Positions 16,945 through 37,634 of a stretch of DNA of 64,000 nucleotides are shown here, one piece after another. The DNA lies in the NCBI GenBank assembly GCA_964358545.1, contig CAYHQN010000007.1, forward strand, positions 3,148 to 67,147. The letters run 5' to 3'. Each line of letters starts with the position of its first letter. Position 1 is the first letter of the stretch. Origin of the DNA: an uncultured Tangfeifania sp. GTDB lineage: Bacteria; Bacteroidota; Bacteroidia; Bacteroidales; Prolixibacteraceae. The notes under the pieces were generated by a model that was given only the letters and a program-made list of their open reading frames with translations, was not told the origin of the DNA and ran no database searches. The position numbers were made by a program, and so were the translations under genes.

Positions 16945-19011
16945 ATGAAGATTAATGTAAAAAAAGTAGGTAAATGTTTTAGGGCGAGCATCTTAATGCC
17001 AATTTTGTTTATCCTGTTTGTGAGTCAGTTTGAAGCAAATGGTTTCCCGCTACCGAATGTACCGCCCAAAGGTATTGAGGTACACCAATGGGTTAAACAA
17101 CATTTTGCCAAGGGTAAGATACCTCCGTTTTCATTTGTTTACGGAGGGAAAAGCTCGGAAAGTTTTATCAAAAACTGGCAGTATAGTGCTGAAAAGATAA
17201 AATCGACCGATCCGAATGTGGAAGAAGTGGTTTACACTTATTCGGATAAACAGAGTGGTCTTGTTGTAAAGTGCAATGTTACTCTTTTTAATGATTTCCA
17301 GGCTGTTGAGTGGGTTCTTAAATTGACAAACAATTCAGAAAGGAATTCGCCATTAATTGAAAAGGCAGCTGTTATAGACTATTCCTTTATCTCGAAAGGG
17401 AAAGGCAGCTTTATACTTCACCATGCCAAAGGAAGTGATGCGAAAATGAATGATTTTCAACCAATTGATGAGACTTTGCAGATAGGGAAAAATATCTACA
17501 TGACCCCGGCTGGAGGACGTTCATCCGACAATACAGCTTTCCCTTTTTTCAACATAGAAATACCCGGTCAGCAGGGAATAATGGTGGCTTTGGGCTGGAG
17601 TGGGAAATGGTATTCGGATGTTTTACAGACAAACGGGAAAACATTTTCTTTAAAATCGGGGATGGAGAAATTTAAACTGGGATTGTTTCCAAAAGAAGAA
17701 ATCCGTACCCCGAAAATCTGTCTGCTTTTCTGGAAAGGTGAAGACAGGATGATTGGGCACAATCTGTTTAGACAATTTGTTTTAAACCATCATACAAGTA
17801 AGATAGACGGGAAGCATGTGGAATTGCCATTTTCTACTTTTCTGGCCCGTGAAGGGCCACCTCCGTGTAACGAGCATACCTGTGCAACTGAATCCTTTAC
17901 TATCGCAATGATTAACCGACATCAGCAATTTCATATTGTTCCTGAAGTCTTTTGGCTCGACGCGGGTTGGTATGCTTGTAACGGAGCCTGGTGGAAGGTT
18001 GGAAACTGGACCCCAAACATCGAAAATTTCCCCAATGGGTTAAAGCCGGTTACTGATGCGGCCCGTAAAGTGGGAGCCAAATTTCTTTTGTGGTTTGAAC
18101 CTGAACGGGTTACAAAGAACACACAATTTGCAGATATAAATCCTGAGTGGATGCTTAACCTTCCAGGCAACGATAATGCCCTTTTTAATCTTGGTAATAA
18201 CGAAGCTAGATTATGGCTAACCAATTATATTTCTAATTTTCTTAAAAAGGAAGGGATTGATTATTATAGACAGGATTTCAACATGAATCCTATGCCTTAT
18301 TGGGAAGCAAATGATAAACCTGATCGAATTGGAATATCTGAAATCAGGCATATTGAAGGATTATACGCTTATTGGGACAGCTTGCTGGTTCGTTTCCCCC
18401 ATCTTATTATTGATAATTGCGCAAGTGGCGGACGACGGATTGATTTGGAGACTATCTCGAGGAGTTCTCCGCTGTGGCGAACAGATTACCAATATGGAGA
18501 ACCAGATGGCTCCCAAAACCATACCTATGGTCTGAATTTTTATCTTCCGCTTCATGGAACCGGTAATTTTAATATTACGCCGTATCATTTTCGGTCAAAC
18601 ATGAGCAGCTCAATGGTGATTAACTGGGATATAAATAGTAAGTTGCATTCAATGAAAGAATTACAGAAATATTTTCTGGATTTTAAACGTTTGCGTCCCT
18701 ATTATTATGGTGATTACTATCCATTGACTGGTACCGAAACTATGTTGCAGGACAACGCATGGATCGCTTATCAACTGAACAGGCAAGTACAGGGAGACGG
18801 TATTATCATGGCTTTCCGAAGGAAAAATTGTGACGATAAATCCCTGACTGTAAAACTACGTGGAATAAGCCCCAAAGAAAACTATGAACTAACAGATGAA
18901 GATTCTCAGATAAAAATTTCGAAAACGGGTGAAGAATTGATGAAGGGCTTTACACTAAACCTGAATGATAAGCCTGGATCGCTTGTGATCATGTATAAAA
19001 AAACGCAGTAG
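16945..19011 (+). CDS. Clan GH-D (GH36-like) alpha-galactosidase-family enzyme, secreted
   Basis: A signal/anchor region is present. 'IDYYRQDFN' and 'IIDNCASGGRRIDLE' match the GH36 'CASGGGR.D' block better than 8579 does. 'LWRTDYQY' may be the acid/base region. Confidence 0.55.
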   Translation: MKINVKKVGKCFRASILMPILFILFVSQFEANGFPLPNVPPKGIEVHQWVKQHFAKGKIPPFSFVYGGKSSESFIKNWQYSAEKIKSTDPNVEEVVYTYSDKQSGLVVKCNVTLFNDFQAVEWVLKLTNNSERNSPLIEKAAVIDYSFISKGKGSFILHHAKGSDAKMNDFQPIDETLQIGKNIYMTPAGGRSSDNTAFPFFNIEIPGQQGIMVALGWSGKWYSDVLQTNGKTFSLKSGMEKFKLGLFPKEEIRTPKICLLFWKGEDRMIGHNLFRQFVLNHHTSKIDGKHVELPFSTFLAREGPPPCNEHTCATESFTIAMINRHQQFHIVPEVFWLDAGWYACNGAWWKVGNWTPNIENFPNGLKPVTDAARKVGAKFLLWFEPERVTKNTQFADINPEWMLNLPGNDNALFNLGNNEARLWLTNYISNFLKKEGIDYYRQDFNMNPMPYWEANDKPDRIGISEIRHIEGLYAYWDSLLVRFPHLIIDNCASGGRRIDLETISRSSPLWRTDYQYGEPDGSQNHTYGLNFYLPLHGTGNFNITPYHFRSNMSSSMVINWDINSKLHSMKELQKYFLDFKRLRPYYYGDYYPLTGTETMLQDNAWIAYQLNRQVQGDGIIMAFRRKNCDDKSLTVKLRGISPKENYELTDEDSQIKISKTGEELMKGFTLNLNDKPGSLVIMYKKTQ

Positions 19012-19036
19012 TAAATTTAAATTAATTGAAAAAGAA

Positions 19037-19966
19037 ATGATTGCTCTCTCCAAATATAAGAATAAGAAGAGCATTATACTTGAAAGTACAAAAATACGGG
19101 CAGAGTTTATTCCTGATCCCGGAGGTAAGCTAGCTTCTCTTATCAATAAAGAAACCGGTTACGAATATATGTTGCAGCGAAAAAACGAAAAATATCTTGA
19201 CCAGCCTTTTGCGGGGGTATTTGTAGACGGGGAATGCAGTGGTTATGATGACATGTTCCCGACCATAGATACCTGCAAGTATCAAAACGAACCCTGGAAA
19301 GAGGTTGAAATGGCCGACCATGGAGAAGTTTGGTCATTGCCCTGGGACTATTCAATAGATAACCTCTCACTACACTTATCAGTGAAAGGGGTACGTTTCC
19401 CCTATAAACTTGAGAAGAATATTTATTTCAAAGAAGAAAATTTAATTCGAATCGACTACACTTTAACTAATAACAGTACTTCCGATTTCGAATTCCTTTG
19501 GGCAGGTCATCTAATGCTAAATATTGAGGAAGGGACAAAAGTACAAGTGCCGGATGATTGCAAGCAGGTTGTAACTATATTAACAAATGGGAAAGGAGCC
19601 TTTGGAGACCTTAACAATTGGCCACATTTTAAAGATCAGGATGGAAATACTTACAGGGCTGATATATGCAGATCGAAAGATATGCTTGGGTTTGAAAAAT
19701 ACTACTTTAATAACAAATTGAAAGATGGTTGGTGTAAACTCCAATACCCCGATCATAAAAATAAATTGAAAATATCGTTTCCGGTTGGTACCGTTCCGTA
19801 TCTCGGAATTCTCATGAATGAAGGCGGGTGGGACGACCTTTATAATATTATCATTGAACCTTGTACGGTTTGCTATGACAGGCCTGATGTGGCAAAAAAA
19901 TATGGTCAGGTAAGTAAAATTGAAGCTTCAGGAATATATGAATGGTACATAGAAATTATGATATAA
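19037..19966 (+). CDS. Galactose-mutarotase-like (aldose 1-epimerase superfamily) protein
   Basis: 309 aa, beta-rich, with no signal peptide. 'AEFIPDPGGKLASLINKETGYEYM' and 'HGEVWSLPWDY' resemble aldose-epimerase-fold proteins. This is a weak, motif-level call. Confidence 0.4.
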   Translation: MIALSKYKNKKSIILESTKIRAEFIPDPGGKLASLINKETGYEYMLQRKNEKYLDQPFAGVFVDGECSGYDDMFPTIDTCKYQNEPWKEVEMADHGEVWSLPWDYSIDNLSLHLSVKGVRFPYKLEKNIYFKEENLIRIDYTLTNNSTSDFEFLWAGHLMLNIEEGTKVQVPDDCKQVVTILTNGKGAFGDLNNWPHFKDQDGNTYRADICRSKDMLGFEKYYFNNKLKDGWCKLQYPDHKNKLKISFPVGTVPYLGILMNEGGWDDLYNIIIEPCTVCYDRPDVAKKYGQVSKIEASGIYEWYIEIMI

Positions 19967-19982: not shown

Positions 19983-20804
19983 ATGTCAGAAAAGATGTAT
20001 GGTAAAAAAGTTTTGGTTACCGGATCAGGAACCGGTATTGGCAGAGAGGTTGCTTTGGAATTTGCCCGGCAAGGCGCTACCGTAGTCCTGCATTATGCCC
20101 ATAGTGCCGATGGGGCAGTATCGGCAGTGGAAGAAATCCGGTCGGCAGGAGGTAAAGCAACAGCAATAAAAGCAGATTTGGGTGATGTAAGCCAGGCTCA
20201 AAGACTCGCATTGGAAGCGATTGAATTTCTGGGGGGTATTGACGTGCTGGTCAATAATGCCGGTATCACCATGACCCTTGAATTTGAAAAGGTGACCCCT
20301 GAACAGTTTGATAGGTTGTATAGCGTAAATGTCAGGGGGCAGTTTTTTATAACGCAGTCAATATTGCCGGCAATGATTAAAAAGGGAAGAGGAGCGGTTA
20401 TTAACCTTTCTTCCGTACATGGTATAAGTGCATGCAAAGGGCATTCAGTTTATGCCGGCACCAAAGGGGCCATCATTGCCTATTCACGTGAGCTTGCTGT
20501 TGAACTGGCCCCGCTGGGCATACGGGTTAATGTCATTGCCCCGGGGGCTGTGCCTGTTGAGAACCATTTCAAAGCAGCCGGGGACATGGATCTTAGCGGG
20601 CTTGGGAAACTGATCCCATGCGGCTTTGCCGGCACACCCCTTGATATTGCCAAGGTTGCCGTGTTTCTCGCCTCAGACGATGCACGGTATATTATTGGCC
20701 AAACAATAGTCGTAGACGGGGGTACCACTTCCTGGATGTCTTTCAGCGAAGGTTACAGTGAAATTGGCCTCCGCTTGGGGAAAGGGTATGTCCCGGGGCT
20801 ATAA
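19983..20804 (+). CDS. Short-chain dehydrogenase/reductase (SDR)
   Basis: It has 'VLVTGSGTGIGREVA' (TGxxxGxG), 'NNAG', and the catalytic 'S..YAGTKGA' (YxxxK). Confidence 0.85.
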   Translation: MSEKMYGKKVLVTGSGTGIGREVALEFARQGATVVLHYAHSADGAVSAVEEIRSAGGKATAIKADLGDVSQAQRLALEAIEFLGGIDVLVNNAGITMTLEFEKVTPEQFDRLYSVNVRGQFFITQSILPAMIKKGRGAVINLSSVHGISACKGHSVYAGTKGAIIAYSRELAVELAPLGIRVNVIAPGAVPVENHFKAAGDMDLSGLGKLIPCGFAGTPLDIAKVAVFLASDDARYIIGQTIVVDGGTTSWMSFSEGYSEIGLRLGKGYVPGL

Positions 20805-20910
20805 AGTAATAAACAAAAAAACATGAAATACCCATGAGACAATTTTCACACTAACCGAAAATGATTAAGTGGGTATTCCATCAGACCATTGAAAAACAAA
20901 ATTTAAACTG

Positions 20911-21696
20911 ATGAAAGGAAACATAAAACCGAAGGATTTTGATGGTAAGGTAGTGCTAGTGACTGGTGCCGGAAGCGGTATCGGAAAGGCAATTGCCAAA
21001 ATGTTCGCTTTAGAAGGGGCATTTGTGATCGCCTGTGACATCGACCGGGTTAAGGTGAAAAATACAGAAGAAGAAATCATAAAATCAAACGGAAAGTCAA
21101 TATCAAAAGATTTTGATGTTTCTGAAGAATTTCAGGTAATGGAATCCGTTGCGCAAGTTGTGAAGAAGTATGGAGCTGTTGATATTTTAATAAATGCTGC
21201 CGGCATTATTTTTTTAGGTAAGGTAGAGGATATTTCCTCAGAGCAATGGGATAGGGTTTTAGATGTAAACCTTAAAGGTACTTTTCTTATGTCCAAAGCA
21301 GTCATACCAGGCATGAAGGAACGCAATAAAGGCTGTATTATCAATATCACGGCAGCAGCTGCAAAGACCGGCGGGATGAATGTGGGAGGAAATTATGTGG
21401 CTTCCAAAGGGGGTATATCTTCCCTGACCATCCATTTGGCAAGACAGCTTGCCCCATTTGGAATCAGGGTAAATGGGATAAGTCCCGGCCCTGTAGACAC
21501 GCCCATGCTGGGAAGTGGCAGCGAAGGTGGAGACTATAATAATGAAATGCGTGAAAATATTGTAAAATCTGTACCCCTTGGAATGGGATATCCGGAAGAT
21601 ATCGCTTACGGGGCGCTTTTTCTGGCTGATGAAAAGCGTGCAAGATATATCACAGGCGAGATACTGGATATTGACGGAGGCCTTTTTATGGATTGA
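20911..21696 (+). CDS. Short-chain dehydrogenase/reductase (SDR)
   Basis: It has 'VLVTGAGSGIGKAIA', 'NAAG' and 'YVASKGG'. Confidence 0.85.
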   Translation: MKGNIKPKDFDGKVVLVTGAGSGIGKAIAKMFALEGAFVIACDIDRVKVKNTEEEIIKSNGKSISKDFDVSEEFQVMESVAQVVKKYGAVDILINAAGIIFLGKVEDISSEQWDRVLDVNLKGTFLMSKAVIPGMKERNKGCIINITAAAAKTGGMNVGGNYVASKGGISSLTIHLARQLAPFGIRVNGISPGPVDTPMLGSGSEGGDYNNEMRENIVKSVPLGMGYPEDIAYGALFLADEKRARYITGEILDIDGGLFMD

Positions 21697-21731
21697 AATG
21701 ACAGTGTTAATATTACAAAACCGAATATGAT

Positions 21732-22757
21732 ATGAGCGATAAATTACCTGATAAAAAGAAGGGACAAATGGCTGATAATAACAGCCTCCTGAGAATCTAT
21801 GAACAGATGTTGAGGATCAGGCTTTTTGAACAAAAAGCGCAGGAGCTTTATGTACAGGGACTGGTCACCGGCTCAATGCATATTTATACAGGTCAGGAAG
21901 CAATCGCAGCGACAGCAGGAGAACTGCTGCGCGAAACCGATACCATAACCAGCACCCACAGGGGACACGGGCATTGCATAGCTAAAGGTGGCCAAGCAGA
22001 CAAGATGATGGCAGAACTCCTTGGAAGGAAGACCGGTTATTGCGGCGGCAAAGGGGGCAGTATGCATATGGCCGATTTTACCAGGGGTAATCTTGGTGCA
22101 AATGGTATGGTGGGCGGAGGGCTTGCCATATCAGTCGGTGCGGGGATAACAAATGCAATCATAAAAAAAAATGACAGTGTCACCATCTGCTTTTTCGGAG
22201 AAGGTGCAACAAATGAAGGCGTTTTTCACGAGTCACTTAACTTAGCTGCATTATGGAAGTTGCCGGTTATATTTCTTTGTGAAAATAATCTTTATCAGGT
22301 ATTTACAAGCGTTGTGGAAAGTATGCCGGTAAAAGATGTAAGTATCAGGGCAATTTCTTACGGAATACCGGGAATTACCTGCGATGGGAATGATGTCCTT
22401 GAACTATATGATGTTTTGGATTCAGCAATTGAAAGGGCCAGAAATGGCCAGGGCCCTGTATTGATAGAAGCCAAAACGTATAGGTGGGAAGGTCACTACA
22501 CAGGTGATGGCCATCACAGAGGTGGCTATAGAAGCATCGAAGAAATTGACCAATGGAAAGCTAAAGACCCCATCGCAAGGCTGGCAAAATATATCATTGA
22601 GAATACCATCGCCGACAGCGAATTTCTGGGAAAAATAGAGTTAGGCTTAAAGGATGAAATAGAAAAAGCTGCCCAGTTTGCAATACAAAGTCCATGGCCT
22701 GATAACGATGATCTTTATAAAGACGTTTTTTACGAAAAGGGGGAAGTAGAGAAATGA
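21732..22757 (+). CDS. ThDP-dependent dehydrogenase E1 component, alpha subunit (acetoin/pyruvate/2-oxoacid dehydrogenase type)
   Basis: It has 'YTGQEAIA', 'HRGHGHCIAKG', 'GGKGGSMH' and the ThDP-binding 'GEGATNEG..NLAALWKLPVIFLCENN'. Confidence 0.85.
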   Translation: MSDKLPDKKKGQMADNNSLLRIYEQMLRIRLFEQKAQELYVQGLVTGSMHIYTGQEAIAATAGELLRETDTITSTHRGHGHCIAKGGQADKMMAELLGRKTGYCGGKGGSMHMADFTRGNLGANGMVGGGLAISVGAGITNAIIKKNDSVTICFFGEGATNEGVFHESLNLAALWKLPVIFLCENNLYQVFTSVVESMPVKDVSIRAISYGIPGITCDGNDVLELYDVLDSAIERARNGQGPVLIEAKTYRWEGHYTGDGHHRGGYRSIEEIDQWKAKDPIARLAKYIIENTIADSEFLGKIELGLKDEIEKAAQFAIQSPWPDNDDLYKDVFYEKGEVEK

Positions 22758-23734
22758 CAGTAATTAAATATTCTCAGGCAATAAGGGATGCTATTGCGGA
22801 AGAAATGCGAATAGACCAAAATGTGTTCGTGATGGGTCAGGACGTAGAAACAATGGGTGGTGTTTTCGGTTGCACAAAAGGAATCCTTGAAGAGTTCGGA
22901 CATGACCGGATCAGGAATACGCCGATTTCAGAAGCGGTTATTATCGGCGCAGGTGTCGGAGGCGCACTGACAGGTACCCGGATGCTGGTCGAGATGCAGT
23001 ATGTTGATTTCATTCTCCACGCTATGGACCAGACAATTAACCAGGCAGCTAAAGTACGTTACATGACAGGCGGCAAAGCTATTGTTCCCCTGGTTATACG
23101 AGCCCAGCAAGGAAGCGGAAGAGGCAATGGGGCACAACATTCTCAGAACCTTGAAGCGTTGTTTTGCCATATGCCCGGATTAAAAGTAGTGATGCCTTCC
23201 ACTCCTTATGACGCAAAAGGGTTATTAAAAACTGCTGTCAGGGATAATAATCCTATCCTGTTCTTTGAGCACAAGGTCCTCTACAACACAAAGGGTGAGG
23301 TGCCGGATACTGATTACACGATACCCTTTGGAAAAGCCGATATCAAACGCACTGGCAAAGATGTGACTGTGATCGCGACTTCCTGGATGGTACTCAGGGC
23401 GTTGGAAGCAGCGGACATTCTTGAGGAGCAGGGTATTGATGCGGAAATAATAGACCCGAGAACGCTGGTCCCACTGGATAAGGATACGATTATAAGTTCA
23501 GTTAAGAAAACGGGCAGGGCAGTAATTGTCCATGAAGCCCATGAGGTATGCGGCATCGGGGCGGAGATAGCATTTATCATCATGGAACTTGCGATTGACT
23601 GGCTCGATGCACCTGTAAAGCGGGTGACTTCTGCCCAGGCGCCTATACCGTACAGCAGTAAACTGGAGAAATTGACAATCCCTTCTGTGGATAGAATCGT
23701 GGATGCGGTAAAGGAGGTAATGTATATAAAATAG
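22754..23734 (+). CDS. ThDP-dependent dehydrogenase E1 component, beta subunit
   Basis: Its ATGA start overlaps the alpha-subunit stop. 'DVETMGGVFGCTKGL..RNTPISEA' is a transketolase-like Pyr domain, followed by a C-terminal domain. Confidence 0.85.
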   Translation: MTVIKYSQAIRDAIAEEMRIDQNVFVMGQDVETMGGVFGCTKGILEEFGHDRIRNTPISEAVIIGAGVGGALTGTRMLVEMQYVDFILHAMDQTINQAAKVRYMTGGKAIVPLVIRAQQGSGRGNGAQHSQNLEALFCHMPGLKVVMPSTPYDAKGLLKTAVRDNNPILFFEHKVLYNTKGEVPDTDYTIPFGKADIKRTGKDVTVIATSWMVLRALEAADILEEQGIDAEIIDPRTLVPLDKDTIISSVKKTGRAVIVHEAHEVCGIGAEIAFIIMELAIDWLDAPVKRVTSAQAPIPYSSKLEKLTIPSVDRIVDAVKEVMYIK

Positions 23735-23755
23735 GAGCATGCTTAAAAAAATTAT

Positions 23756-24169
23756 ATGGACATTTTTGACATAGACAAACTCCCGTACTCCGAGTTTGGC
23801 AGTATAATCAAAAGAAAGGTCAGGCTTGTAATTTCTCCTGCAACAACAGGTGAAGGGAAGGTGGCTATTGTGCATGTAAATATTCCTCCAGGAGGTATTT
23901 CTGATGGACATTTACACCGTGAAAGTGATGAATATATTCTTTTTGATAATGATGGTGCCGTAATCCTGGACGGGAAGAGACATGAAGTTATTAAAGGAAG
24001 CCTTGTTCACGCAGTTAAAGGTGTAATGCATGAATGTATAAATACAAGTGACAATAAGGAACTTAATCTTACCTGTGTGTTTGTTCCTCCTTTTGAACCA
24101 TACGGTTCTTATCCTGAACTTATAAAAAGAACAAGGGACTTTCTGAAGGATAAAGGCACAAATGAATAA
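23756..24169 (+). CDS. Cupin-domain protein
   Basis: 137 aa. 'PPGGISDGHLHRESDEYILF..G' and 'HAVKGVMHECINT' fit the two cupin motifs. Confidence 0.6.
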   Translation: MDIFDIDKLPYSEFGSIIKRKVRLVISPATTGEGKVAIVHVNIPPGGISDGHLHRESDEYILFDNDGAVILDGKRHEVIKGSLVHAVKGVMHECINTSDNKELNLTCVFVPPFEPYGSYPELIKRTRDFLKDKGTNE

Positions 24170-24196
24170 GCGAATAACATAATAACTTAAATAAAA

Positions 24197-25411: not shown

Positions 25412-25504
25412 TGATAATTAAGCGTTGAAAAAAGAATAGGCTTAGAAGCTTAAAAATAAGGTTATTAAGGGATTTTGAGTAATTTTAAATAGGACGCAAT
25501 AAAA

Positions 25505-28556: not shown

Positions 28557-28604
28557 TGCTTATGATTATTCGATTGATTAACAAAATCTTAGAAAATATT
28601 TAAA

Positions 28605-29888: not shown

Positions 29889-30309
29889 TGGCCTTGAACA
29901 TGTAGGATTAAGTGTTTCAAATCTGGATAGATCGATTGATTTTTATTGTAAAAATATACAATGTGAAGTAATTCGGATTATTGAAGCAAATACTAATCCT
30001 CTTTTGGGAAAAGTGGTTGGCATGCCTGGCTGTGTTGCCCGAATAGCGCATTTGAAGTCAGGGTCGAATATGCTTGAACTGTTTGAATACACTTCACCGA
30101 ATGGGGAAAAAATACCGGAGGATTTTAAACAAGCTGATAATGGGTTTGTTCATGCCGGTTTTAGTTCTTCAGATGTTAGAAATGATTATTTGAAGTTAAA
30201 ACAAGATGGTGTTGTTTTTATTAGCGAACCTGTAGAATTCAGAAAAGATGTCTGGATTTGTTATTTCTATGGACCGGATCGGGAAGTTTGCGAGTTGAGA
30301 GAGAGTTAA
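29881..30309 (+). CDS. VOC-family (glyoxalase/bleomycin-resistance/dioxygenase fold) protein
   Basis: 142 aa. 'LEHVGLSVSNLDRSIDFY' and 'HAGF..SD' are typical VOC module openings. Its start overlaps the stop of the LarA-like gene. Confidence 0.65.
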   Translation: MINGLEHVGLSVSNLDRSIDFYCKNIQCEVIRIIEANTNPLLGKVVGMPGCVARIAHLKSGSNMLELFEYTSPNGEKIPEDFKQADNGFVHAGFSSSDVRNDYLKLKQDGVVFISEPVEFRKDVWICYFYGPDREVCELRES

Positions 30310-30332
30310 ATTTGATAAATAAGAGAGGATTT

Positions 30333-32507
30333 ATGAAAAAATTCGAAATGAATTATGATTTTAAAGGATACAAATGGGAAAGTGAAAATATAGATCTGAA
30401 ATCGATAGACAAGATAAAATTTGCGCGTATTCTTTTTGATGTATTCGTGATCAATGAATTTGAAACAGAGTTACTAAAATTAAAAAATGATGATTGCATT
30501 TGGGGACCAGTTCATACCAGTATTGGACAAGAGGCAATAGCAGCTGCAAGTGTCGCAGCATTAAAAACTTCGGATAAATTTTTTGGTACACATCGTTCCC
30601 ACCATCAGTTTTTATCAAAAGTACTACAATATTATGTACCTGAAACCTGGAATCCAGTCTTGGAAAAATTACCGAATGAAGCGGAAACAGTTGTTAGAAA
30701 AACTCTTGCAGAGATCATGGGGCTTGCCGATGGCTACTGCGGTGGGAGAGGGGGTTCCATGCACTTACGGGATAAAGAAGCAGGATTTTTGGGTTCAAAT
30801 GCTATTGTTGCAGGAGGAATACCACTTGCAACAGGGGCTGCATTCATGGAAAAATATAGTAATTCAGGTAATGTAGTGGTCTGTTTTTTTGGGGATGGAG
30901 CCATCAATCAGGGGGCATTTCATGAAGCTTGTAATCTCGCCGGACTTTGGAAATTGCCGATCATTTTTTTCCTTGAAAACAATGAATATGCAGTTGCTAC
31001 AAAAGTCGATAATTCGTGTGCTGTATCAGAATTATCCGTTCGTGCATCTTCCTATGGCATGGATGCGCACATTGTGGATGGTAATGACGCACTTGCAATA
31101 TACCAGCTAATGAACTCTGTTAGCAATGATATCAGGAAAAACAGCCGACCTTGTTTTGTTGAAGCCAAATGCTATAGGCGCTTTCATCATGCAGGAGATC
31201 TGCCAGGCAGCGCTTTCAAATATAGGTCGAAAGAAGAAGAAGACAACTGGATGAAAAAGGAGGTTGTACTGAATTTACCTGCTAATCTGATAAAAAATGG
31301 TGTTTTTTCGAGGGCGGAAACTGAGCATGTAAAAGACATTGCATTCCAGGCAGTTAAGAATGCTGTCGATTATTATACTGAAGGTAGTGAAAAGAAAATA
31401 GTCAAAGCCGGAATGTTCCCACTCCCTGAATCTGCTTCGATTGGAGTTAAAAGCGATGGCAGTGAGTTCAAACACATAAAATTCAGTGAAAGAGAAAATT
31501 ATGTTACTCTAAAAGAGCAAAAATATTCTGATGCTATCTCTTCTGCAACCGGCAGATGGCTTGAAAAAGATGAAGGGACAATTGTTTTGGGAGAAGAAGT
31601 TGCAAATTTTGGGGGAGGCGCTTACGGTGCAACCAAAGGATTACCGGATAAATATCCATCCAGGGTACTGAATACACCTATTTCTGAAGCTGGTTTCACA
31701 GGATTGGGCCTGGGAGCTGCAATGTCAGGTATGCGGCCGGTGATAGAAATAATGTTCCCTGATTTCTCATTGGTTGCAGCTGATCAAATTTTTAATCAGA
31801 TAGGAAAGGCCCGTCATATGTATGGTAATACAACTGACATCCCTTTGGTATTAAGAATTCGCATAGCTGTCGGCTGCGGTTATGGTGGGCAGCATTCAAT
31901 GGATCCTGTGGGATTATATGCGCTGTTTAGCGGTTGGCGCATTGTTGCTCCATCCAATGCGTTTGACTATATCGGCTTATTTAATACAGCTATGCAATCG
32001 AACGATCCTGTCGTTATTATTGAGCACCATCAGTTATATCCACTAAAATTTCCTGTTCCGGAAAATGAGCTTGATTATTTTATACCTTTTGGCAAAGCGA
32101 GGATAGTTTCAACAGGCAAAGATGCAACGCTGATAACATACGGAGTAATGGCCTATCGGTGTGAACAATTAATTTCGAATTTTATAGAAAAAGGAATTTC
32201 AGTCGAAATTATTGATTTACGTACCATTGATTTGCCCGGGCTGGATTTTGAGACTGTCGGCGAATCCCTGAAAAAAACCGGTGTGGCAATAGTAGTTGAA
32301 GAAGCTCCTGCAAACCATTCTATTGGATCAAAAATAGCTGCAGAACTCACAGAAAGGTACTTTGATTATCTGGATAGTCCTGTAATGCGTTTAACTTCTT
32401 TGGATGTTCCCAATTCAGTTTCCAAAGTGTTGGAAAAAGCAGCTATGATTGATGATGAAACCATTATTAGAAATACTGTCTTAGCTGCCAAACGACAATG
32501 GAAATAG
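30333..32507 (+). CDS. Fused E1 alpha-beta ThDP-dependent dehydrogenase component
   Basis: The N-terminal half has 'SIGQEAIA', 'HRSHHQF', 'GGRGGSMH' and 'GDGAINQGAFHEACNLAGLWKLPIIFFLENN'. The C-terminal half has 'FGGGAYGATKGL..LNTPISEAG' plus a C-terminal domain. I prefer the ATG at 30333 (preceded by AAGAGAGGA) over the track start at 30258, which overlaps the VOC gene. Confidence 0.8.
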   Translation: MKKFEMNYDFKGYKWESENIDLKSIDKIKFARILFDVFVINEFETELLKLKNDDCIWGPVHTSIGQEAIAAASVAALKTSDKFFGTHRSHHQFLSKVLQYYVPETWNPVLEKLPNEAETVVRKTLAEIMGLADGYCGGRGGSMHLRDKEAGFLGSNAIVAGGIPLATGAAFMEKYSNSGNVVVCFFGDGAINQGAFHEACNLAGLWKLPIIFFLENNEYAVATKVDNSCAVSELSVRASSYGMDAHIVDGNDALAIYQLMNSVSNDIRKNSRPCFVEAKCYRRFHHAGDLPGSAFKYRSKEEEDNWMKKEVVLNLPANLIKNGVFSRAETEHVKDIAFQAVKNAVDYYTEGSEKKIVKAGMFPLPESASIGVKSDGSEFKHIKFSERENYVTLKEQKYSDAISSATGRWLEKDEGTIVLGEEVANFGGGAYGATKGLPDKYPSRVLNTPISEAGFTGLGLGAAMSGMRPVIEIMFPDFSLVAADQIFNQIGKARHMYGNTTDIPLVLRIRIAVGCGYGGQHSMDPVGLYALFSGWRIVAPSNAFDYIGLFNTAMQSNDPVVIIEHHQLYPLKFPVPENELDYFIPFGKARIVSTGKDATLITYGVMAYRCEQLISNFIEKGISVEIIDLRTIDLPGLDFETVGESLKKTGVAIVVEEAPANHSIGSKIAAELTERYFDYLDSPVMRLTSLDVPNSVSKVLEKAAMIDDETIIRNTVLAAKRQWK

Positions 32508-32566
32508 AATTTTCAATTCAAAAAAAATATCAGCCAAAGACTTTTTTGGTACAATAAACAAAAAAT

Positions 32567-34027
32567 ATGAACGAATTAAAGACTTTCAAAAATTACATCA
32601 ATGGACAATGGCTTGATGCCAGTACACTTGCTACTTTTGAACAAAGAAATCCTTCCATGTTATATGAAGTAACTGGATTATTTCCACTTTCATCAAAAGA
32701 AGATACCATTCTTGCAATTGAAGCAGCTCAATCTGCCTTTACAGAGTGGAAGACCCTTTCACCCTTTGTCAGGGCTAAATATCTCAAAAAAGTTCTTGCC
32801 TTGATGATCGAAAGAAGAGAAGATATCGCCGGAATCATTACCCTGGAAAACGGGAAAATAGTATCTGATTCGTTGGGTGAGATTGATTCAGCTATTGCTG
32901 AAATGGAATTTCAAATAAATGAAGGATTACGCTTGTTTGGAGAGACTGTTCCAGTTAGTATTGACGGTGTATTCGCATACACGGTCAAAGAACCGTTGGG
33001 GGTAGTAAGTGTCATTAGTCCCTGGAATTTTCCTTTTAACGTTCCGGTTCGAAAGATTATCCCGGCTTTAATGGCCGGTAATACCTGTGTTTTTAAACCT
33101 GCCAGTTTAACGCCTCAAACCGGTTATATGTTTACTAAATTATTTGATGATGGAGGTGCCCCTGCCGGTGTATTAAATATGATTACTGGCTCGGGTAGTG
33201 TCGTAGGCAATATCCTGGTTACAGACCCCAGAATAAAAGCAATTTCATTTACCGGATCGACAGAAGTGGGAATGGGCATCCATCAAAAGGCCGCTGTTAA
33301 TGCCACTCGCACGCAACTTGAACTGGGAGGGAAAAATGCCACGGTTATTCTAGAAGATGCAGATATCGACTTGGCAGTAAAAGCTGTTACAAGGGCAGCA
33401 TTTGCCTGTTCCGGACAATGGTGTACCTCAACAAGCCGGGCTATTGTAGTTAAAAAAGTAGCACAAGAGTTTACCGAGAAACTTGTTAAAGCGACAAACG
33501 CGATAATTGTTGGAGATGGTTTCGATCAGAAAGCAGGGATGGGCCCTGTTTGCGGTACCGACCAGTTTGAAAACATTAAGAAGTATATTGAAATTGGCAA
33601 AAAGGAGGGGGCAATCCTTTTAACAGGAGGGAATGTGGTTAAAAATAGTCATTTTAAGGAGGGTTGTTTTATTGAACCTACCATATTTGGCGGTGTGAAA
33701 CCTGACATGAAAATAGCGCAGGAAGAAATTTTCGGACCCGTACTGTCAGTCATTACCGTTGAAAATCTTGAAGAAGCAATAAAAGTTTCCAACGACATAA
33801 TATTTGGATTAAGCTCATCCATATTCACCAATAATCTTGAACATGCCATGACTTTTGTTAAACAAACAGAAGTGGGATTTACCCATGTGAATTTGATGAC
33901 TTCGTTAAAAGAACCTCAACTTCCATTTGGTGGAATTAAAGAATCGGGTGTAGGTACGCCTGAAGCAGGAAAAACCGGTATTGAATTCTTTATAAAATAC
34001 AAAACAGTTTACATGAAATATTCATAA
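32567..34027 (+). CDS. NAD(P)+-dependent aldehyde dehydrogenase
   Basis: It has 'SPWNFP', the 'ELGGKN' glutamate motif, the catalytic Cys region 'FACSGQWCTS' and 'EEIFGPV'. Confidence 0.9.
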   Translation: MNELKTFKNYINGQWLDASTLATFEQRNPSMLYEVTGLFPLSSKEDTILAIEAAQSAFTEWKTLSPFVRAKYLKKVLALMIERREDIAGIITLENGKIVSDSLGEIDSAIAEMEFQINEGLRLFGETVPVSIDGVFAYTVKEPLGVVSVISPWNFPFNVPVRKIIPALMAGNTCVFKPASLTPQTGYMFTKLFDDGGAPAGVLNMITGSGSVVGNILVTDPRIKAISFTGSTEVGMGIHQKAAVNATRTQLELGGKNATVILEDADIDLAVKAVTRAAFACSGQWCTSTSRAIVVKKVAQEFTEKLVKATNAIIVGDGFDQKAGMGPVCGTDQFENIKKYIEIGKKEGAILLTGGNVVKNSHFKEGCFIEPTIFGGVKPDMKIAQEEIFGPVLSVITVENLEEAIKVSNDIIFGLSSSIFTNNLEHAMTFVKQTEVGFTHVNLMTSLKEPQLPFGGIKESGVGTPEAGKTGIEFFIKYKTVYMKYS

Positions 34028-34135
34028 TTTTTCACTTCAGTTTAAGTCTTCATATAAATCGATAAACTAGAAACAGACCAAAACGGATGAAAATAAAGCA
34101 TGCGAGTTACCTATTAAGAAACTAATTATTACAAA

Positions 34136-34897
34136 ATGAAGCTAAAAAACAAAGTTGCAATTATTACAGGTTCAGCAAAAGGTATTGGTAAGGGATGTGC
34201 CCTCGTATTTGCTAAAGAAGGCGCAAAAGTCGTCATTGTGGATTTAGACGAGAAATCAGGTGAACAAACAGTCAAAGAGATATCAGAAAAAAATGGTACA
34301 TCAATTTTTATTAAAACTGATCTAACGAAAGTAGCTGATGTTCAATCCATGATTTCAAGTGTTATCCGTACTTATGGTCAAATCGATATTATGTTCAATA
34401 ATGCAGGATATCATATCTCAAAGAATGTCGAATTGACCTCAGAAGACGAATGGGATTTTATCATTAACACCAATTTAAAAAGTGTTTTTTTATGCTGCAA
34501 ATATTCAATTCCATACCTCAGAAAAACCAAAGGTTGTATCATAAACATGAGTTCTATGGTAGGGCTGATCGGACAATCCAATGCAGGGGCATATTCTGCT
34601 TCTAAAGGTGGAATAGTAGCCATGACAAAAGGCATGTCATTAGATTTTGCAAAGGATGGAATAAGGGTAAATTGTATATGTCCGGGGTGGGTAAATACAC
34701 CTTTGGTGGAAGATTGGTTCGGCCAGCAAAAGGATCCTCAAAAGGCAAAAGAATACATTTATAGTGTTCATCCTCTTAATCGGATTGCGTCTTCCGAAGA
34801 GATTGGGAATGCTGCTGCATTTTTAGCTTCATCCGAAGCATCATTTATTACAGGGGTTGCTTTGCCAGTTGATGGAGCGGTTAGTCTGGGTTATTAA
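34136..34897 (+). CDS. Short-chain dehydrogenase/reductase (SDR)
   Basis: It has 'AIITGSAKGIGKG', 'NNAG' and 'YSASKGG'. Confidence 0.85.
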   Translation: MKLKNKVAIITGSAKGIGKGCALVFAKEGAKVVIVDLDEKSGEQTVKEISEKNGTSIFIKTDLTKVADVQSMISSVIRTYGQIDIMFNNAGYHISKNVELTSEDEWDFIINTNLKSVFLCCKYSIPYLRKTKGCIINMSSMVGLIGQSNAGAYSASKGGIVAMTKGMSLDFAKDGIRVNCICPGWVNTPLVEDWFGQQKDPQKAKEYIYSVHPLNRIASSEEIGNAAAFLASSEASFITGVALPVDGAVSLGY

Positions 34898-34915
34898 ATT
34901 CAAACTTAAAACAAA

Positions 34916-35698
34916 ATGAGTTTATCCGAAAAAATAAAAGAGATAAAAGTCAAACAAGGCGAAATAGCTCTTTTTTATCTTGCACAAGCCGGATTCTGTA
35001 TTAAATCAGCCGGCAATAAAATAATAGTTATCGACGCATACTTGTCTGATGCGGCAGAACGATTATTCGGTTTCAAAAGAATGATCCCTTCAGTGATAAA
35101 GCCTGAAGAAATTGACGCTGATTTCTTTCTTTCAACTCATTCACATGTTGATCATCTCGATCCGGATGCAATACCTGTAATTGCAAAGAATCCCAAAACA
35201 TTCTTTGTAGGATCAATGGATTGCGAAGAATTGTATCAACAAAACAATATTTCAAAAACCAGCTATTGTGTTTTAAAATCAGATGAAGAATGGACGGGGA
35301 ACGGAATAAAGATAAAAGCTATTTATGCTGATCATGGGGACTTGGCACCTACTGCTATAGGTATGTTGATTGATATTGAAGGAATTAAAATATATCATTC
35401 AGGGGATACATGTTTCGCACCTGATAAAATAAAAGCTTCATTAAATACAAGTGTTGATATCATGATAGCACCAATTAATGGTCAATACGGAAATCTTAAT
35501 GCGTCTGAATCGTGCAAGCTTGCAAATCTATTAGCCCCCAAAGTCACAATTGCCAGCCATTTTTGGATGTTTATTGAACATGTAGGCGAAGGAGGAGTTG
35601 GAGATCCTTCAACTTTTTTAAAAGAATCGGAGCATCTCTCTCAAAATATTAGGGCGATGGTCATGGCCCCGGGAGAACTTTTTATCTATTCAAAATAA
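34916..35698 (+). CDS. Metallo-beta-lactamase-fold hydrolase (UlaG-like, possible lactonase)
   Basis: It has the 'LSTHSHVDHLD' HxHxDH motif and later 'HSGDT' and 'ASH'. At 260 aa the size fits the UlaG-like subgroup. Confidence 0.6.
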   Translation: MSLSEKIKEIKVKQGEIALFYLAQAGFCIKSAGNKIIVIDAYLSDAAERLFGFKRMIPSVIKPEEIDADFFLSTHSHVDHLDPDAIPVIAKNPKTFFVGSMDCEELYQQNNISKTSYCVLKSDEEWTGNGIKIKAIYADHGDLAPTAIGMLIDIEGIKIYHSGDTCFAPDKIKASLNTSVDIMIAPINGQYGNLNASESCKLANLLAPKVTIASHFWMFIEHVGEGGVGDPSTFLKESEHLSQNIRAMVMAPGELFIYSK

Positions 35699-35704
35699 AT
35701 CATA

Positions 35705-36556
35705 ATGATAGATTACTCAATCATTGATACCCATTTACATCTTTGGGACACCAAAAAGTTCCGCTATCCATGGTTGGATGAAATTCCGGCCTTAAACAGA
35801 ACATTTTCTTTGGACGACTACAACCGGGCCTGTGGGGATGTCAAAGTAGGGAAAATGGTTTTCATGCAATGTGAATGCCTTCCTTCACATTATATGCAAG
35901 AGGTCGGGTGGATAACAGAACTGTCCAAAACGGACGCCAGAATAAGTGGGATTGTATCTTGGGCGCCTTTGGAAAAAGGAGAAAGAGTCAGGCCGGAAAT
36001 AGAATTGTTAAAAAAGAATAGTCTGGTTAAAGGTCTGCGCAGAATCATTCAGGGTGAACCGGATTTGGAATTTTGTCTTGGTTCTGACTTTGTTCAGGGT
36101 GTTAACTTGCTGTCCGAATATGATTTGACATTTGATATTTGTATATCCTATCTGCACAACAAAAATATTATAAAATTCATTGATCAATGTCCGGATGTTC
36201 GTATGATCCTGGATCACATCGGTAAACCAAATATTAAGGACAGGGTCATACATCCTTGGTTTGATGAAATAACTGAAATATCAAAATACCCTAATATTTA
36301 TTGTAAATTATCAAGTCTGGCCACAGAAGCTGATCATTTGAACTGGACCATTGATGATATTCGTCCTTATGTTGATCATTTAGTTGAATGCTTTGGTTTT
36401 GAGCGTCTTGTATTTGCAACCGACTGGCCGGTTTCATCGCTGGCAGCTAGTATTCCAATGTGTGTAAATACATTGGTTACAATTCTTAAGGGATGTTCAC
36501 AAGCAGAATTGGACAGGGTTTTTACCAGTAATGCTTTGGATTTTTATCATATCTGA
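35705..36556 (+). CDS. Amidohydrolase_2-family hydrolase (sugar-lactonase type, e.g. L-fucono/L-rhamnono-lactonase-like)
   Basis: The N-terminal 'IIDTHLHLWD..YPWL' and the later 'LDHIGKP' and 'FATDWP' fit the metal-dependent TIM-barrel Amidohydro_2 family, which contains characterised aldonolactonases. Confidence 0.65.
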   Translation: MIDYSIIDTHLHLWDTKKFRYPWLDEIPALNRTFSLDDYNRACGDVKVGKMVFMQCECLPSHYMQEVGWITELSKTDARISGIVSWAPLEKGERVRPEIELLKKNSLVKGLRRIIQGEPDLEFCLGSDFVQGVNLLSEYDLTFDICISYLHNKNIIKFIDQCPDVRMILDHIGKPNIKDRVIHPWFDEITEISKYPNIYCKLSSLATEADHLNWTIDDIRPYVDHLVECFGFERLVFATDWPVSSLAASIPMCVNTLVTILKGCSQAELDRVFTSNALDFYHI

Positions 36557-36608
36557 TCATTGGTTTACAATAGAAATGTCATTATTAATCTACTAACTAT
36601 ATAAACGC

Positions 36609-37634
36609 ATGAATAACTTTATTTTGTCCATTTTCTTAATAATACTTGCAGGTTTTTTTCAGGGCACATTTGGGTTGGGTATGAAAAAGTTTACTCCTGC
36701 ATGGGAATCCTATTGGTTGATTTTCTCAATTTTCGGTTTGACTGTTATTCCGTTCATCTGGGCAAGAATTCTGGTCCCGGATGTATTTGGGGCCATCAGT
36801 GTGTTATCAACCGGAACTATTTTTTACTCATTTTTATTTGGGGCAATGTGGGGGATAAGTGCAATATTATTTGGTTTGGCCATTAATTATGTTGGGGTAT
36901 CTTTATCTTTCGGAATATGTATGAGTACAGGTGCATTAGTCGGTTCACTGTTGCCATTGTTTCAGATCGAAGATTTTAATAACAAACCATCCTTTCTGTA
37001 TATTATTTTGGGTTTATTAATTATGACAATTGGAGTGATTGTCATAACTTATGCAGGAAATTTGCGAAATAAACTGCAAACTTCAGAGGATAGTGTAAAA
37101 TCAGGTATAAAAAAGGGAATATTCTTTAAACTTGGAATCCTATTTTCAATAGCTGCCGGAATAGGTGCTGCACTGCAAAATGTTAGTTATACAAGCGCCG
37201 CACCTGCCATCAATGCAGCTGTTCTACAAGGGGTAAAACCGCAAAACGCTAGTTTAGTTGCCTGGATTGTTGTACTTTTCGGGGGATTTATTCCAAATTT
37301 TACCTATTCGATATATTTACTGACAAAAAATAAATCCTGGAATGTATTAATCACAAAAAAACCGGCAAGGATATATATTCTGGGTATAATTACTGCATTT
37401 TGTTGGTTTGCTGCATTGGGCGTTTATGGCCAAAGTGCAGCAATTATGGGCGAAATGGGTCCTGTAATTTGCTGGACAATGTTTTTTGCAGTTTCTCTTA
37501 TTTTTAGCAGTTTCTGGGGCATCCGTGCAGGTGAATGGAAGGGCACAAAATTGGCTTATAAAGTGTTGATTTCCGGAAACATTATATTGATTATTTCGTG
37601 GATAATTCTTGGATATGCCAATACTTTACTGTAA
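36609..37634 (+). CDS. RhaT-family (DMT superfamily) sugar:H+ symporter, second copy
   Basis: 341 aa with about 10 TM helices and the same layout as 26764..27810 ('FQGTFGLGMKKF' compared with 'GTGAAAWPMKII'). Confidence 0.55.
   Translation: MNNFILSIFLIILAGFFQGTFGLGMKKFTPAWESYWLIFSIFGLTVIPFIWARILVPDVFGAISVLSTGTIFYSFLFGAMWGISAILFGLAINYVGVSLSFGICMSTGALVGSLLPLFQIEDFNNKPSFLYIILGLLIMTIGVIVITYAGNLRNKLQTSEDSVKSGIKKGIFFKLGILFSIAAGIGAALQNVSYTSAAPAINAAVLQGVKPQNASLVAWIVVLFGGFIPNFTYSIYLLTKNKSWNVLITKKPARIYILGIITAFCWFAALGVYGQSAAIMGEMGPVICWTMFFAVSLIFSSFWGIRAGEWKGTKLAYKVLISGNIILIISWIILGYANTLL

Follow-up and report, generated by a model that had tools for sequence, protein, structure and literature searches.

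How might a bacterial gene island that encodes sugar dehydrogenases, lactonase-type hydrolases and sugar permeases, and no recognizable dehydratase, aldolase or kinase, break the carbon chain of its substrate? This question is raised by positions 16945-37634 of a 64,000-nucleotide stretch of contig CAYHQN010000007.1 (assembly GCA_964358545.1) from an uncultured Tangfeifania sp. (Bacteroidota; Prolixibacteraceae), the whole of which is hereafter called the window. A total of 20 genes are located there on the + strand with intergenic gaps of -8 to 108 bp, as measured gene by gene from the listing of open reading frames (ORFs). Near the middle of this run are a homologue of the nickel-pincer enzyme LarA, a VOC-fold protein, a thiamine-dependent E1 with its alpha and beta parts fused in a single chain (the fused E1), and an aldehyde dehydrogenase (ALDH). 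This variant is real and conserved, and is proposed to join an oxidative sugar pathway to a cleavage resembling that of acetoin dehydrogenase. A probability of about 45% is given to the reading that a 6-deoxyhexose is degraded through the island by an oxidative, non-phosphorylative route with such an E1-type cleavage. Fucose and rhamnose are major parts of plant, algal and microbial glycans, and knowledge of their catabolism informs the interpretation of metagenomes and glycan loci.

The island had been described from its letters alone (the sequence-only reading), and the run of same-strand genes was recovered as 20 genes with every domain then named. The divergent GntR/FCD regulator in front of the island and the two GH95 genes and one GH29 gene upstream were likewise identified by Pfam, and the Pfam and NCBIfam hidden Markov models (HMMs) agreed with the domain calls over the island (Table 1). 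The same reading had stressed that a dehydratase, an aldolase, an FAH-type hydrolase, a kinase and an E3 are all missing, and this stood: no match to MR_MLE, ILVD_EDD, UxaA/SAF, DHDPS, HpcH, FAA_hydrolase or a sugar kinase was obtained with Pfam or NCBIfam in the island and the scanned ORFs of the window, and no hidden dehydratase or aldolase emerged among the genes called cupin, VOC, MBL or LarA-like. An aldonate dehydratase of the enolase-superfamily, IlvD/Edd or UxaA type was detected by these libraries neither in the island nor in the related loci considered below, and E3 (dihydrolipoamide dehydrogenase) was found neither among the scanned ORFs of the window nor in the related loci. Among these loci, which are designated by L numbers, only L006 carries an aldolase (DeoC/LacD-type), together with two PfkB kinases, placed elsewhere in its island than the position of the split E1/E2 block described below.

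The start of the fused E1 was set at the ATG at 30333 instead of the TTG at 30258 of the mechanical ORF call, giving a protein of 724 amino acids (aa). Many orthologues are found in metagenomes, and almost without exception they have this same length. With the fused E1 that is common in Bacteroidia, as in L171 and L172, the protein shares about 30% identity, its scores stay under every NCBIfam E1 model, and the motifs GDG...NN, 'FHH' and 'GGQHS' are invariant in the alignment of the family (A2). Both catalytic histidine motifs of the heterotetrameric E1s are presumably kept, by comparison with the motifs of human pyruvate dehydrogenase (PDH). R146, which comes after a GGSMH motif, is likewise invariant, and is a basic residue that might hold a distal carboxylate. 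Judged by its sequence, the fused E1 is a distinct and highly conserved family. A fusion by artefact was considered and ruled out: in locus L001, where two ORFs are called, the sequence differs from the window at one of 2175 nt, and the orthologues are uniform in length. The call of 387 plus 306 aa at that locus (L001:5139-7313, on the contig JASJPO010000034.1 of a metagenome-assembled genome, MAG) stems either from a nonsense polymorphism or from a mistake in the assembly.

The neighbourhood was analysed over 33 loci in which the identity of the fused E1 is 50% or more: their ORFs were clustered, the recurring families were annotated and the neighbours were counted. An aldehyde-converting enzyme is located within 1.2 kb of the fused E1 in 20 of the 33 loci, represented by ALDH in 13, a tungsten-dependent aldehyde:ferredoxin oxidoreductase (AOR) in six and an iron-dependent alcohol dehydrogenase (Fe-ADH) in one; the coupling of E1 with an aldehyde enzyme, as foreseen by the sequence-only reading, is thus borne out. 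LarA-type proteins are present near the fused E1 in 17/33 loci and VOC proteins in 13/33, and one or both in 25/33, corresponding to all the loci with enough flanking sequence; the other eight are fragments of 6 kb or less. The neighbours also include a GntR/FCD regulator (12/33), a lactonase-type hydrolase of the Amidohydro_2 or 'cyclase' family (10/33), RhaT (9/33) and a gene of the lactate dehydrogenase (LDH), malate dehydrogenase (MDH) or malic-enzyme type (4/33), and SDRs (short-chain dehydrogenases/reductases) recur as well. A lipoyl E2 was found near the fused E1 in five of the 33 (the window, L088, L007, L094 and L099), a count that includes a Pfam check and a relaxed tblastn search, as divergent E2s are missed by the clustering threshold alone.

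Three architectures could be distinguished. The first, that of the window, consists of SDR, group 18 LarA homologue, VOC, fused E1 and ALDH, with Fe-ADH taking the place of ALDH in a Chitinivibrionales MAG. In the second, GntR, a cyclase-type hydrolase, RhaT, SDR, ALDH and the fused E1 are accompanied by a divergent pair of a putative single-histidine LarA homologue and an SDR (L104 and L106-L108). In the third, GntR is divergent from VOC, AOR and the fused E1, at times followed by an LDH-type gene and E2. The Chitinivibrionales locus (L090) carries GntR, two SDRs, Amidohydro_2, a 2-hydroxyacid dehydrogenase, LarA homologue, VOC, fused E1 and Fe-ADH, whereas L007 carries E2, SDR, LarA homologue, RhaT, SDR, Amidohydro_2, fused E1 and ALDH, beside two GH78 rhamnosidases and SusC/D; the gene sets of L088 and L006 resemble this L007/L090 core. 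The core set is thus syntenic in unrelated metagenomes and MAGs of several phyla, beyond Bacteroidota, and the co-occurrence search that the sequence-only reading had proposed finds it conserved in relatives across several lineages. In L092, the gene for the fused E1 is followed by a URO-D-like gene.

In the compact clusters the fused E1 is, from gene content, the sole candidate for a carbon-carbon-cleaving enzyme. The alternation beside it of ALDH, AOR and Fe-ADH, three unrelated families, suggests that its product is most simply an aldehyde. The fused E1 is accompanied by both E2 and ALDH in three loci (the window, L088 and L007), and by E2 and AOR in L094 and L099. Such co-occurrence of E2 with an aldehyde enzyme fits the formation of an acyl-CoA plus an aldehyde, and agrees less well with 2-oxoacid oxidation, a reaction from which no aldehyde remains.

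The LarA homologue had been labelled LarA-like in the sequence-only reading and had no part in the scheme proposed there. It is a Lar_N homologue as supposed, but its finer identity had been missed: the protein clears, in an end-to-end alignment, the NCBIfam equivalog NF052594 'putative hexonate epimerase' (LarAH group 18), and is a core component of the island. Its best match in PDB is 4NAR, not LarA itself. In an alignment of 24 sequences (A1), H75, H152, K162 and H178 are invariant, and the spacing of His, Lys (+10) and His (+16) is LarA-like. From this spacing we take the counterparts of LarA D72/R75, H108, H174, K184 and H200 to be all invariant in A1, the LarA numbering being assigned by motif spacing; the lysine tethering the cofactor, the histidine binding nickel and the two catalytic histidines appear to be retained. 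For group 18, hexonate epimerization is a hypothesis (Desguin et al., PMC7583248). LarA enzymes work at C2 of 2-hydroxy acids via a 2-keto intermediate (PMC11770544).

A scan of GTDB genomes with the alignment of this LarA homologue gave a total of 80 loci, in which distant members share 45-53% identity. The neighbours in these 80 loci are SDR (54), 6-phosphogluconate dehydrogenase (52), PfkB kinase (45), UxaE (28), UxaC (22) and KDPG aldolase (16). Only L008 is island-like, and the others, such as L061 of Tannerella forsythia, differ in context. This glucuronate, mannonate, gluconate and 6-phosphogluconate context of the wider family supports C2-epimerase chemistry on an aldonate as the predicted activity. 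In the sub-clade of the window, with members at least 55% identical among themselves, the partners are the fused E1, RhaT and lactonases instead of UxaC, UxaE and 6-phosphogluconate dehydrogenase; its substrate is likely to differ from that of the wider family and to be another aldonate, perhaps a 6-deoxy one.

Some further observations concern these proteins. The GTDB loci L009-L087 predict a hexuronate route via mannonate, gluconate and 6-phosphogluconate that skips mannonate dehydratase. In L008, from a Prolixibacteraceae MAG, an MmgE/PrpD-family protein (12205-13725) takes the position of the fused E1 and ALDH behind a unit of RhaT, LarA homologue, VOC, SDR and cupin, with GH3 and GH95 nearby; it may substitute for them downstream and act on the intermediate that they would use. 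A second LarA family is represented by L107:6458-7747 with homologues in about nine other fused-E1 loci (for example L089, L096, L101, L103, L104, L106, L108, L109 and L127). Its nearest models are malate and lactate racemase, both below the cut-offs. The L107 motif 'MPIDVCGFTGGGK' appears to have isoleucine at the position of the second catalytic histidine of LarA, and the protein would be a single-histidine homologue (cf. PMC12611868). A LarA-type gene adjoins an SDR gene in L006, L007, L088, L089, L103 and L106-L109. For the VOC protein, no close solved structure was found by sequence search of PDB.

The second thiamine-lipoyl module of the window, composed of E1 alpha, E1 beta, cupin 1 and E2 (the split block), had been listed in the sequence-only reading among the genes of the island. 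It is absent from L006, in which the shared island proteins are 81-95% identical to those of the window, and is by this distribution an accessory module. In the E2 translation, the lipoyl site ETDKA and the catalytic motif DHRAIDG can be read directly. Among NCBIfam models, E2 is matched best by that of the PDH acetyltransferase, with 259 bits where 445 are required; the cut-offs for PDH components are missed by E1 alpha and E2 and cleared by E1 beta alone, on a subfamily model. The scores of E1 alpha and E2 argue against a housekeeping PDH, and with the location of the block inside a sugar island this assignment was judged unlikely. The block is co-oriented with the sugar genes at gaps of 106 bp or less, and orthologues (81-92% identity) are present inside the island, beside RhaT and GH29, in L088 and in L140/L173; those of E1 alpha (81-86%) always lie inside the island, and cupin 1 always lies between the thiamine enzyme and E2. 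The placement of one E2 beside several thiamine enzymes, for which the sequence-only reading supposed sharing, recurs in L088 and L140/L173. Directly upstream of an orthologous cupin (79% identity) and E2 (75%), L173 has a split-chain transketolase, to which 6YAK is the best match in PDB, so that this contig holds three thiamine enzymes and one E2. Transketolases use alpha-hydroxyketone donors, and the L173 arrangement therefore supports a ketose-like substrate for the thiamine-cupin-E2 module; the accessory module of the window probably acts on a ketose-like intermediate.

Two side observations relate to this block. In L171 and L172, E2s 74-78% identical to that of the window form a two-gene operon with another fused E1 (765-857 aa), preceded by a GntR/UTRA regulator and followed by an HAD hydrolase, which looks like a widespread Bacteroidia unit. 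L173 is the contig of L140 (Ga0209450_10000109), and its region of about 2052-18360 encodes three URO-D-like proteins, a B12-binding corrinoid protein and a CdhD/pterin-binding methyltransferase, together with MTHFR and formate-tetrahydrofolate ligase, beside RhaT and GH29; the combination is suggestive of a corrinoid-dependent O-demethylase that may act on methylated deoxy-sugars.

As to the sugar to be degraded, the link to 6-deoxy-sugars suggested in the sequence-only reading gained support. RhaT, GH29 and GH95 are present in the window; near the fused E1, GH78 occurs in L007, L090 and L106, and GH29 in the window, L089 and L173; GH95 neighbours are found in the window, L101 and L008. The nearest NCBIfam model of the Amidohydro_2 hydrolase is L-fucono-1,5-lactonase (127 bits against a cut-off of 400), and its best PDB match is 4DLF/4DNM/4DO7, deposited under 'Amidohydrolase 2'. 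L-fucose or L-rhamnose is the substrate suggested by RhaT, by the GH29, GH95 and GH78 enzymes and by the fuconolactonase-like hydrolase taken together. SDR5 gave 255 bits with BudC (meso-2,3-butanediol dehydrogenase; cut-off 270) and 190 with L-fucose dehydrogenase (cut-off 300), and a score of 188 bits (cut-off 400) was obtained with the L-rhamnose dehydrogenase model; from its lactonase-type neighbours SDR5 is a probable sugar 1-dehydrogenase. SDR4 adjoins the LarA homologue in L006, L007 and L088 and shares its cluster in L090. The nearest model of ALDH is alpha-ketoglutaric semialdehyde dehydrogenase (522 bits against 770). In sequence searches of PDB, no close solved relative was found for ALDH, and only remote or generic matches for cupin 2 and SDR4. 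The best PDB matches of the GH36-like enzyme are GH36 alpha-galactosidases (about 90 bits); its orthologues flank the fused E1 in L006, L092 and L093, and relatives of the mutarotase-like protein are present in L006, L104 and L127.

In the route proposed, L-fucose and/or L-rhamnose, the most likely substrates, would be freed by the neighbouring GH29 and GH95 enzymes and imported by a RhaT permease. An SDR would oxidize the sugar to the lactone, the Amidohydro_2 and/or MBL-fold hydrolase would open it to the aldonate, and the LarA homologue would reset the configuration at C2. The FabG-like SDR, with the VOC and/or cupin proteins, would then form a keto-aldonate that is an alpha-hydroxyketone. 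In place of dehydratase and aldolase, the fused E1 would act as acetoin dehydrogenase does and cut a carbon-carbon bond adjacent to the keto group. The aldehyde thus freed would be oxidized by the adjacent ALDH, and the thiamine-bound acyl unit would be passed to lipoyl E2 and released as acyl-CoA if E2 is available, or else as a second aldehyde. For the widespread fused E1 family as a whole, the same role as the cleaving step in a new class of sugar-acid pathways, with LarA-type and/or VOC proteins and an SDR preparing the keto-aldonate, a retro-acyloin split of it into aldehyde and acyl unit, and E2, if present, capturing the acyl unit as acyl-CoA, is put forward tentatively, at somewhat less than an even chance. 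No description of this cluster, nor of an E1-type enzyme in deoxy-sugar catabolism, was found in the literature searched.

The position of the cut may be considered in two ways. The one favoured, although held weakly, and already suggested in the sequence-only reading, is a cut at C4-C5 of a 5-keto-6-deoxy-aldonate, yielding acetyl-CoA and a C4 acid semialdehyde that would be oxidized to tartrate; this fits the PDH-acetyltransferase-like E2, the acid-semialdehyde-like ALDH and the malate-racemase-, MDH- and malic-enzyme-like genes in other loci. A cut at C3-C4 of a 3- or 4-keto-aldonate, yielding lactaldehyde and tartronate semialdehyde, is also possible, and would accord with the FabG-like SDR, with Fe-ADH and LDH as neighbours and with the lactate-racemase-like LarA homologues.

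A number of observations weigh against the proposed route or parts of it. E2 is near the fused E1 in just five of the 33 loci, and no E3 was seen there, so that a lipoyl-dependent step is putative; the single E2, named in the sequence-only reading as the partner that the fused E1 would have to share, is accordingly not a conserved one. None of larB, larC and larE, for synthesis of the nickel-pincer cofactor, was found in the 64-kb window. Of the glycosidases, the GH36-like one has the closest linkage with the fused E1, and it would indicate a sugar of D-galacto or L-arabino configuration rather than L-fucose. The FabG-like SDR beside the LarA homologue favours a 3-keto over a 5-keto intermediate. 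Ldh_1, Ldh_2 and malic-enzyme-type genes adjoin the fused E1 in L094, L112, L115 and L106, and in combination with malate- and lactate-racemase-like LarA proteins they fit a sequence of lactaldehyde, lactate and pyruvate equally well as tartrate. Other positions of the cut, or plain decarboxylation of a 2-oxoacid, would match the gene content about as well.

The last of these possibilities deserves weighing in full. The LarA homologue and the adjacent SDR could make a 2-keto-(6-deoxy)aldonate, to be decarboxylated by the fused E1 to an aldehyde one carbon shorter, which would be oxidized by ALDH or AOR or reduced by Fe-ADH; the reaction could even cycle, peeling carbons from C1 down to lactate or pyruvate, and would then explain the need for a C2 epimerase. 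Decarboxylation of 2-oxoacids is what an E1 does by default, and the two catalytic histidine motifs are retained; the passage of LarA enzymes through a 2-keto state at C2 and the nine loci with adjoining LarA-type and SDR genes agree with it, as do the aldehyde enzyme beside the fused E1, if decarboxylation is non-oxidative, and the lack of E2 in most loci. In the five loci with E2, however, the aldehyde enzyme is retained, whereas oxidative decarboxylation through E2 leaves no aldehyde. The known cases of E1-family decarboxylases are contested, a single round would end at a 5-deoxypentonate with no visible downstream enzymes, repeated rounds are speculative, and for the L173 module at least, the succession of transketolase, cupin and E2 speaks for substrates of the hydroxyketone type. 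Decarboxylation is on balance considered unlikely.

Slightly less likely again is that a standard dehydratase and aldolase are encoded elsewhere in the genome, and that the fused E1, E2, ALDH and LarA homologue serve a lower pathway from lactaldehyde through lactate and pyruvate to acetyl-CoA. The classical fates of lactaldehyde are those catalysed by ALDH, AOR and Fe-ADH, the LarA-type genes of compact clusters are near the lactate and malate racemase models, the four loci with Ldh_1, Ldh_2 or malic-enzyme-type genes fit well, and both E1s and E2 resemble PDH components most. The model cleared by the LarA homologue of the window, however, is that of the hexonate epimerase and not that of lactate racemase, the scores of E1 alpha and E2 are too low for the PDH equivalogs, and the fused E1 is distant from its common Bacteroidia counterpart. 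Moreover, apart from the DeoC/LacD-type aldolase of L006, no dehydratase or aldolase was found in about 25 long loci of several phyla, some of them self-contained with regulator and transporter. It is improbable, finally, that the split block and the SDRs form an ordinary acetoin/2,3-butanediol dehydrogenase system or PDH that is functionally independent of the sugar genes. In size, E1 alpha, E1 beta and E2 do resemble an acoABC set, the island SDRs give sub-threshold scores on the meso-2,3-butanediol dehydrogenase model (that of SDR5 being cited above), the block differs from the distal half of the island in GC content at third codon positions (GC3), and L006 does without it. Against such independence stand its orientation and close spacing with the sugar genes, the orthologous blocks beside RhaT and GH29 in L088 and L140/L173, the conserved cupin, the PDH cut-offs missed by E1 alpha and E2, and the lack of an E3 and of an acetoin regulator in scans with the general libraries, which included no Aco-specific HMM.

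The features of the island and its upstream region are listed in Table 1. Proteins identical to those of the island occur in the Bacteroidota MAG GCA_031432175.1 and in Hainich groundwater metagenomes. GC3 is 0.38-0.48 for the genes from SDR1 to SDR3 (window 19983-26290; cupin 1, 0.28) against 0.27-0.36 for those from SDR4 to the second RhaT (27843-37634), a difference which suggests that the island was assembled from modules of differing histories. Scans of the island for sigma-70 promoters and intrinsic terminators gave counts not above those of shuffled sequence, and are uninformative on operon structure. The two proteins encoded between the GH95 genes, one weakly GH5-like and one matching the C-terminal domain of GH36, may be uncharacterized glycosidases of the same glycan-utilization locus. 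Downstream of the island are genes for a sigma factor, a DnaX-type clamp-loader subunit (DNA polymerase III), an isocitrate/isopropylmalate dehydrogenase-family protein, SecA and Lgt. Further along, two + strand genes (48550-50247 and 50437-51213; 565 and 258 aa) carry a GcvH-type (lipoyl-carrier) domain inside much longer chains, which is unusual for GcvH; the genes that come directly after them (51488-54538) encode a histidine kinase and a sigma-54 response regulator.

Table 1. Genes of the island, its regulator and the upstream glycoside hydrolase region. Positions are those of the window; scores are in bits, with the model cut-off after "vs".
Feature	Position	Strand	Evidence and remarks
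GH2	1590-4484	+	Pfam
GH95	4526-7120	+	Pfam
Weak GH5-like protein, 352 aa	7296-8354	+	Pfam
669-aa protein, match to GH36 C-terminal domain only	8579-10588	+	Pfam
GH95	10732-13338	+	Pfam
GH29	13385-15160	+	Pfam
GntR/FCD regulator	15960-16610	-	Pfam FCD 74, GntR 58; 334 bp upstream of island, divergent
GH36-like glycosidase (clan GH-D, alpha-galactosidase-like)	16945-19011	+	Pfam Melibiase 89
Mutarotase-like protein	19037-19966	+	Weak Pfam Aldose_epim, 33
SDR 1, glucose-1-dehydrogenase-like subfamily	19983-20804	+	Pfam adh_short_C2 195; NCBIfam PRK07231 228 vs 215
SDR 2, opening the accessory block SDR2-E1a-E1b-cupin-E2	20911-21696	+	Pfam
E1 alpha (thiamine-diphosphate-binding)	21732-22757	+	Pfam E1_dh 252; TIGR03182 354 vs 393.85
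E1 beta	22754-23734	+	Pfam Transket_pyr and Transketolase_C; NCBIfam PRK09212 395 vs 321; 4-nt overlap with E1 alpha
Small cupin 1	23756-24169	+	Pfam Cupin_2 31
E2 dihydrolipoamide acyltransferase	24197-25411	+	Pfam Biotin_lipoyl (one), E3_binding (PSBD), 2-oxoacid_dh
SDR 3	25505-26290	+	Pfam; NCBIfam PRK07231 244
Small cupin 2 (possible sugar or keto-acid isomerase)	26341-26751	+	Pfam Cupin_2 44; weak MannoseP_isomer
RhaT-family sugar/proton symporter 1	26764-27810	+	Pfam RhaT; NCBIfam RhaT models 166, below cut-off
SDR 4, FabG-like	27843-28556	+	Pfam; best PDB and NCBIfam matches FabG 3-oxoacyl reductases
LarA homologue, group 18	28605-29888	+	Pfam Lar_N; NCBIfam NF052594 567 vs 500
VOC/glyoxalase-fold protein	29881-30309	+	Pfam Glyoxalase 52; 8-nt overlap with LarA homologue
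Fused E1 alpha-beta, 724 aa	30333-32507	+	Pfam E1_dh, Transket_pyr and Transketolase_C; begins 23 nt past VOC gene
NAD(P)-dependent aldehyde dehydrogenase	32567-34027	+	Pfam Aldedh 535; 59 nt past fused E1
SDR 5	34136-34897	+	Pfam; adjoins lactonase-type genes
MBL-fold hydrolase (UlaG-like, lactonase-type)	34916-35698	+	Pfam Lactamase_B_3; weak NCBIfam L-ascorbate-6-phosphate lactonase
Amidohydro_2 sugar lactonase-type hydrolase	35705-36556	+	Pfam 135
RhaT-family sugar/proton symporter 2	36609-37634	+	Pfam RhaT 80; NCBIfam RhaT model 243 vs 369

That the island represents a new pathway type is considered a little less than evenly probable. If so, an E1-type thiamine enzyme would stand in place of a dehydratase and an aldolase, and the route would bypass both the isomerase/kinase/aldolase and the dehydratase/aldolase logic of all the fucose and rhamnose routes described. 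Functions would be gained for several large families now regarded as generic and misannotated, such as the fused E1, labelled '2-oxoisovalerate dehydrogenase E1' by JGI, and the LarA homologue, labelled 'lactate racemase'; for LarA group 18 this would be the first physiological role. The reaction scope of the E1 and E2 of 2-oxoacid dehydrogenases would extend to polyhydroxy ketoacids, and the carbon and energy bookkeeping of deoxy-sugars would shift, for example by direct formation of acyl-CoA. The variants with AOR and Fe-ADH suggest that the route also runs in anaerobes.

Among known systems, the non-phosphorylative L-fucose and L-rhamnose routes run through a dehydrogenase, a lactonase and a dehydratase, followed by either an aldolase or a 4-dehydrogenase and an FAH-type hydrolase. 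The island shares with them a candidate SDR dehydrogenase, a candidate lactonase in the Amidohydro_2 protein related to L-fucono-1,5-lactonase, ALDH, the GntR/FCD regulator and fucosidase or rhamnosidase neighbours, but differs in that the LarA homologue, VOC and the fused E1 are present instead of an enolase-superfamily, IlvD/Edd or UxaA dehydratase, an HpcH/DHDPS aldolase and FAH. The acetoin dehydrogenase system consists of E1 (AcoA/AcoB), E2 (AcoC) and E3 (AcoL) together with an acetaldehyde dehydrogenase such as AcoD, and its E1-type thiamine enzyme and lipoyl E2 split an alpha-hydroxyketone into acyl-CoA and an aldehyde. The island likewise pairs the fused E1 with ALDH, and the combination of fused E1, ALDH and E2 in the window, L088 and L007, with AOR for ALDH in L094 and L099, is similar. 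It is different with respect to the single fused chain of E1, the lack of E3 and usual absence of E2, the setting among lactonases, RhaT, the nickel-pincer epimerase and VOC, the replacement of ALDH by AOR or Fe-ADH, and the proposed substrate, a polyhydroxy acid instead of acetoin. With PDH and the branched-chain 2-oxoacid dehydrogenases, the island proteins share the domain architecture of E1 alpha/beta and E2 and the thiamine and histidine motifs, and E2s of the window type pair with fused E1s in L171 and L172; the low identity of the fused E1, the sub-threshold E1 alpha and E2, the lack of E3 and the setting among sugar genes with aldehyde enzymes distinguish them.

As to LarA-type epimerases, the protein of the window clears the group 18 model and keeps the cofactor and catalytic motifs, in line with the gluconate 2-epimerases (GntE, LarAH groups 19/20) and with group 18 (PMC7583248), but its sub-clade is linked to the fused E1, RhaT and lactonases. 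In QncN/QncL, a thiamine component of the E1/transketolase type hands a two-carbon ketose fragment to a lipoyl acyltransferase (PMC6335953), and the split transketolase-cupin-E2 set of L173 and the E1-cupin-E2 set of the island follow the same logic, with the difference that QncN/QncL are biosynthetic and load an acyl carrier protein, whereas the island would be catabolic and has no carrier protein. QncN/QncL and the acetoin dehydrogenase described above are precedents for the transfer of a cleaved fragment from thiamine to the lipoyl group that is proposed for the island.

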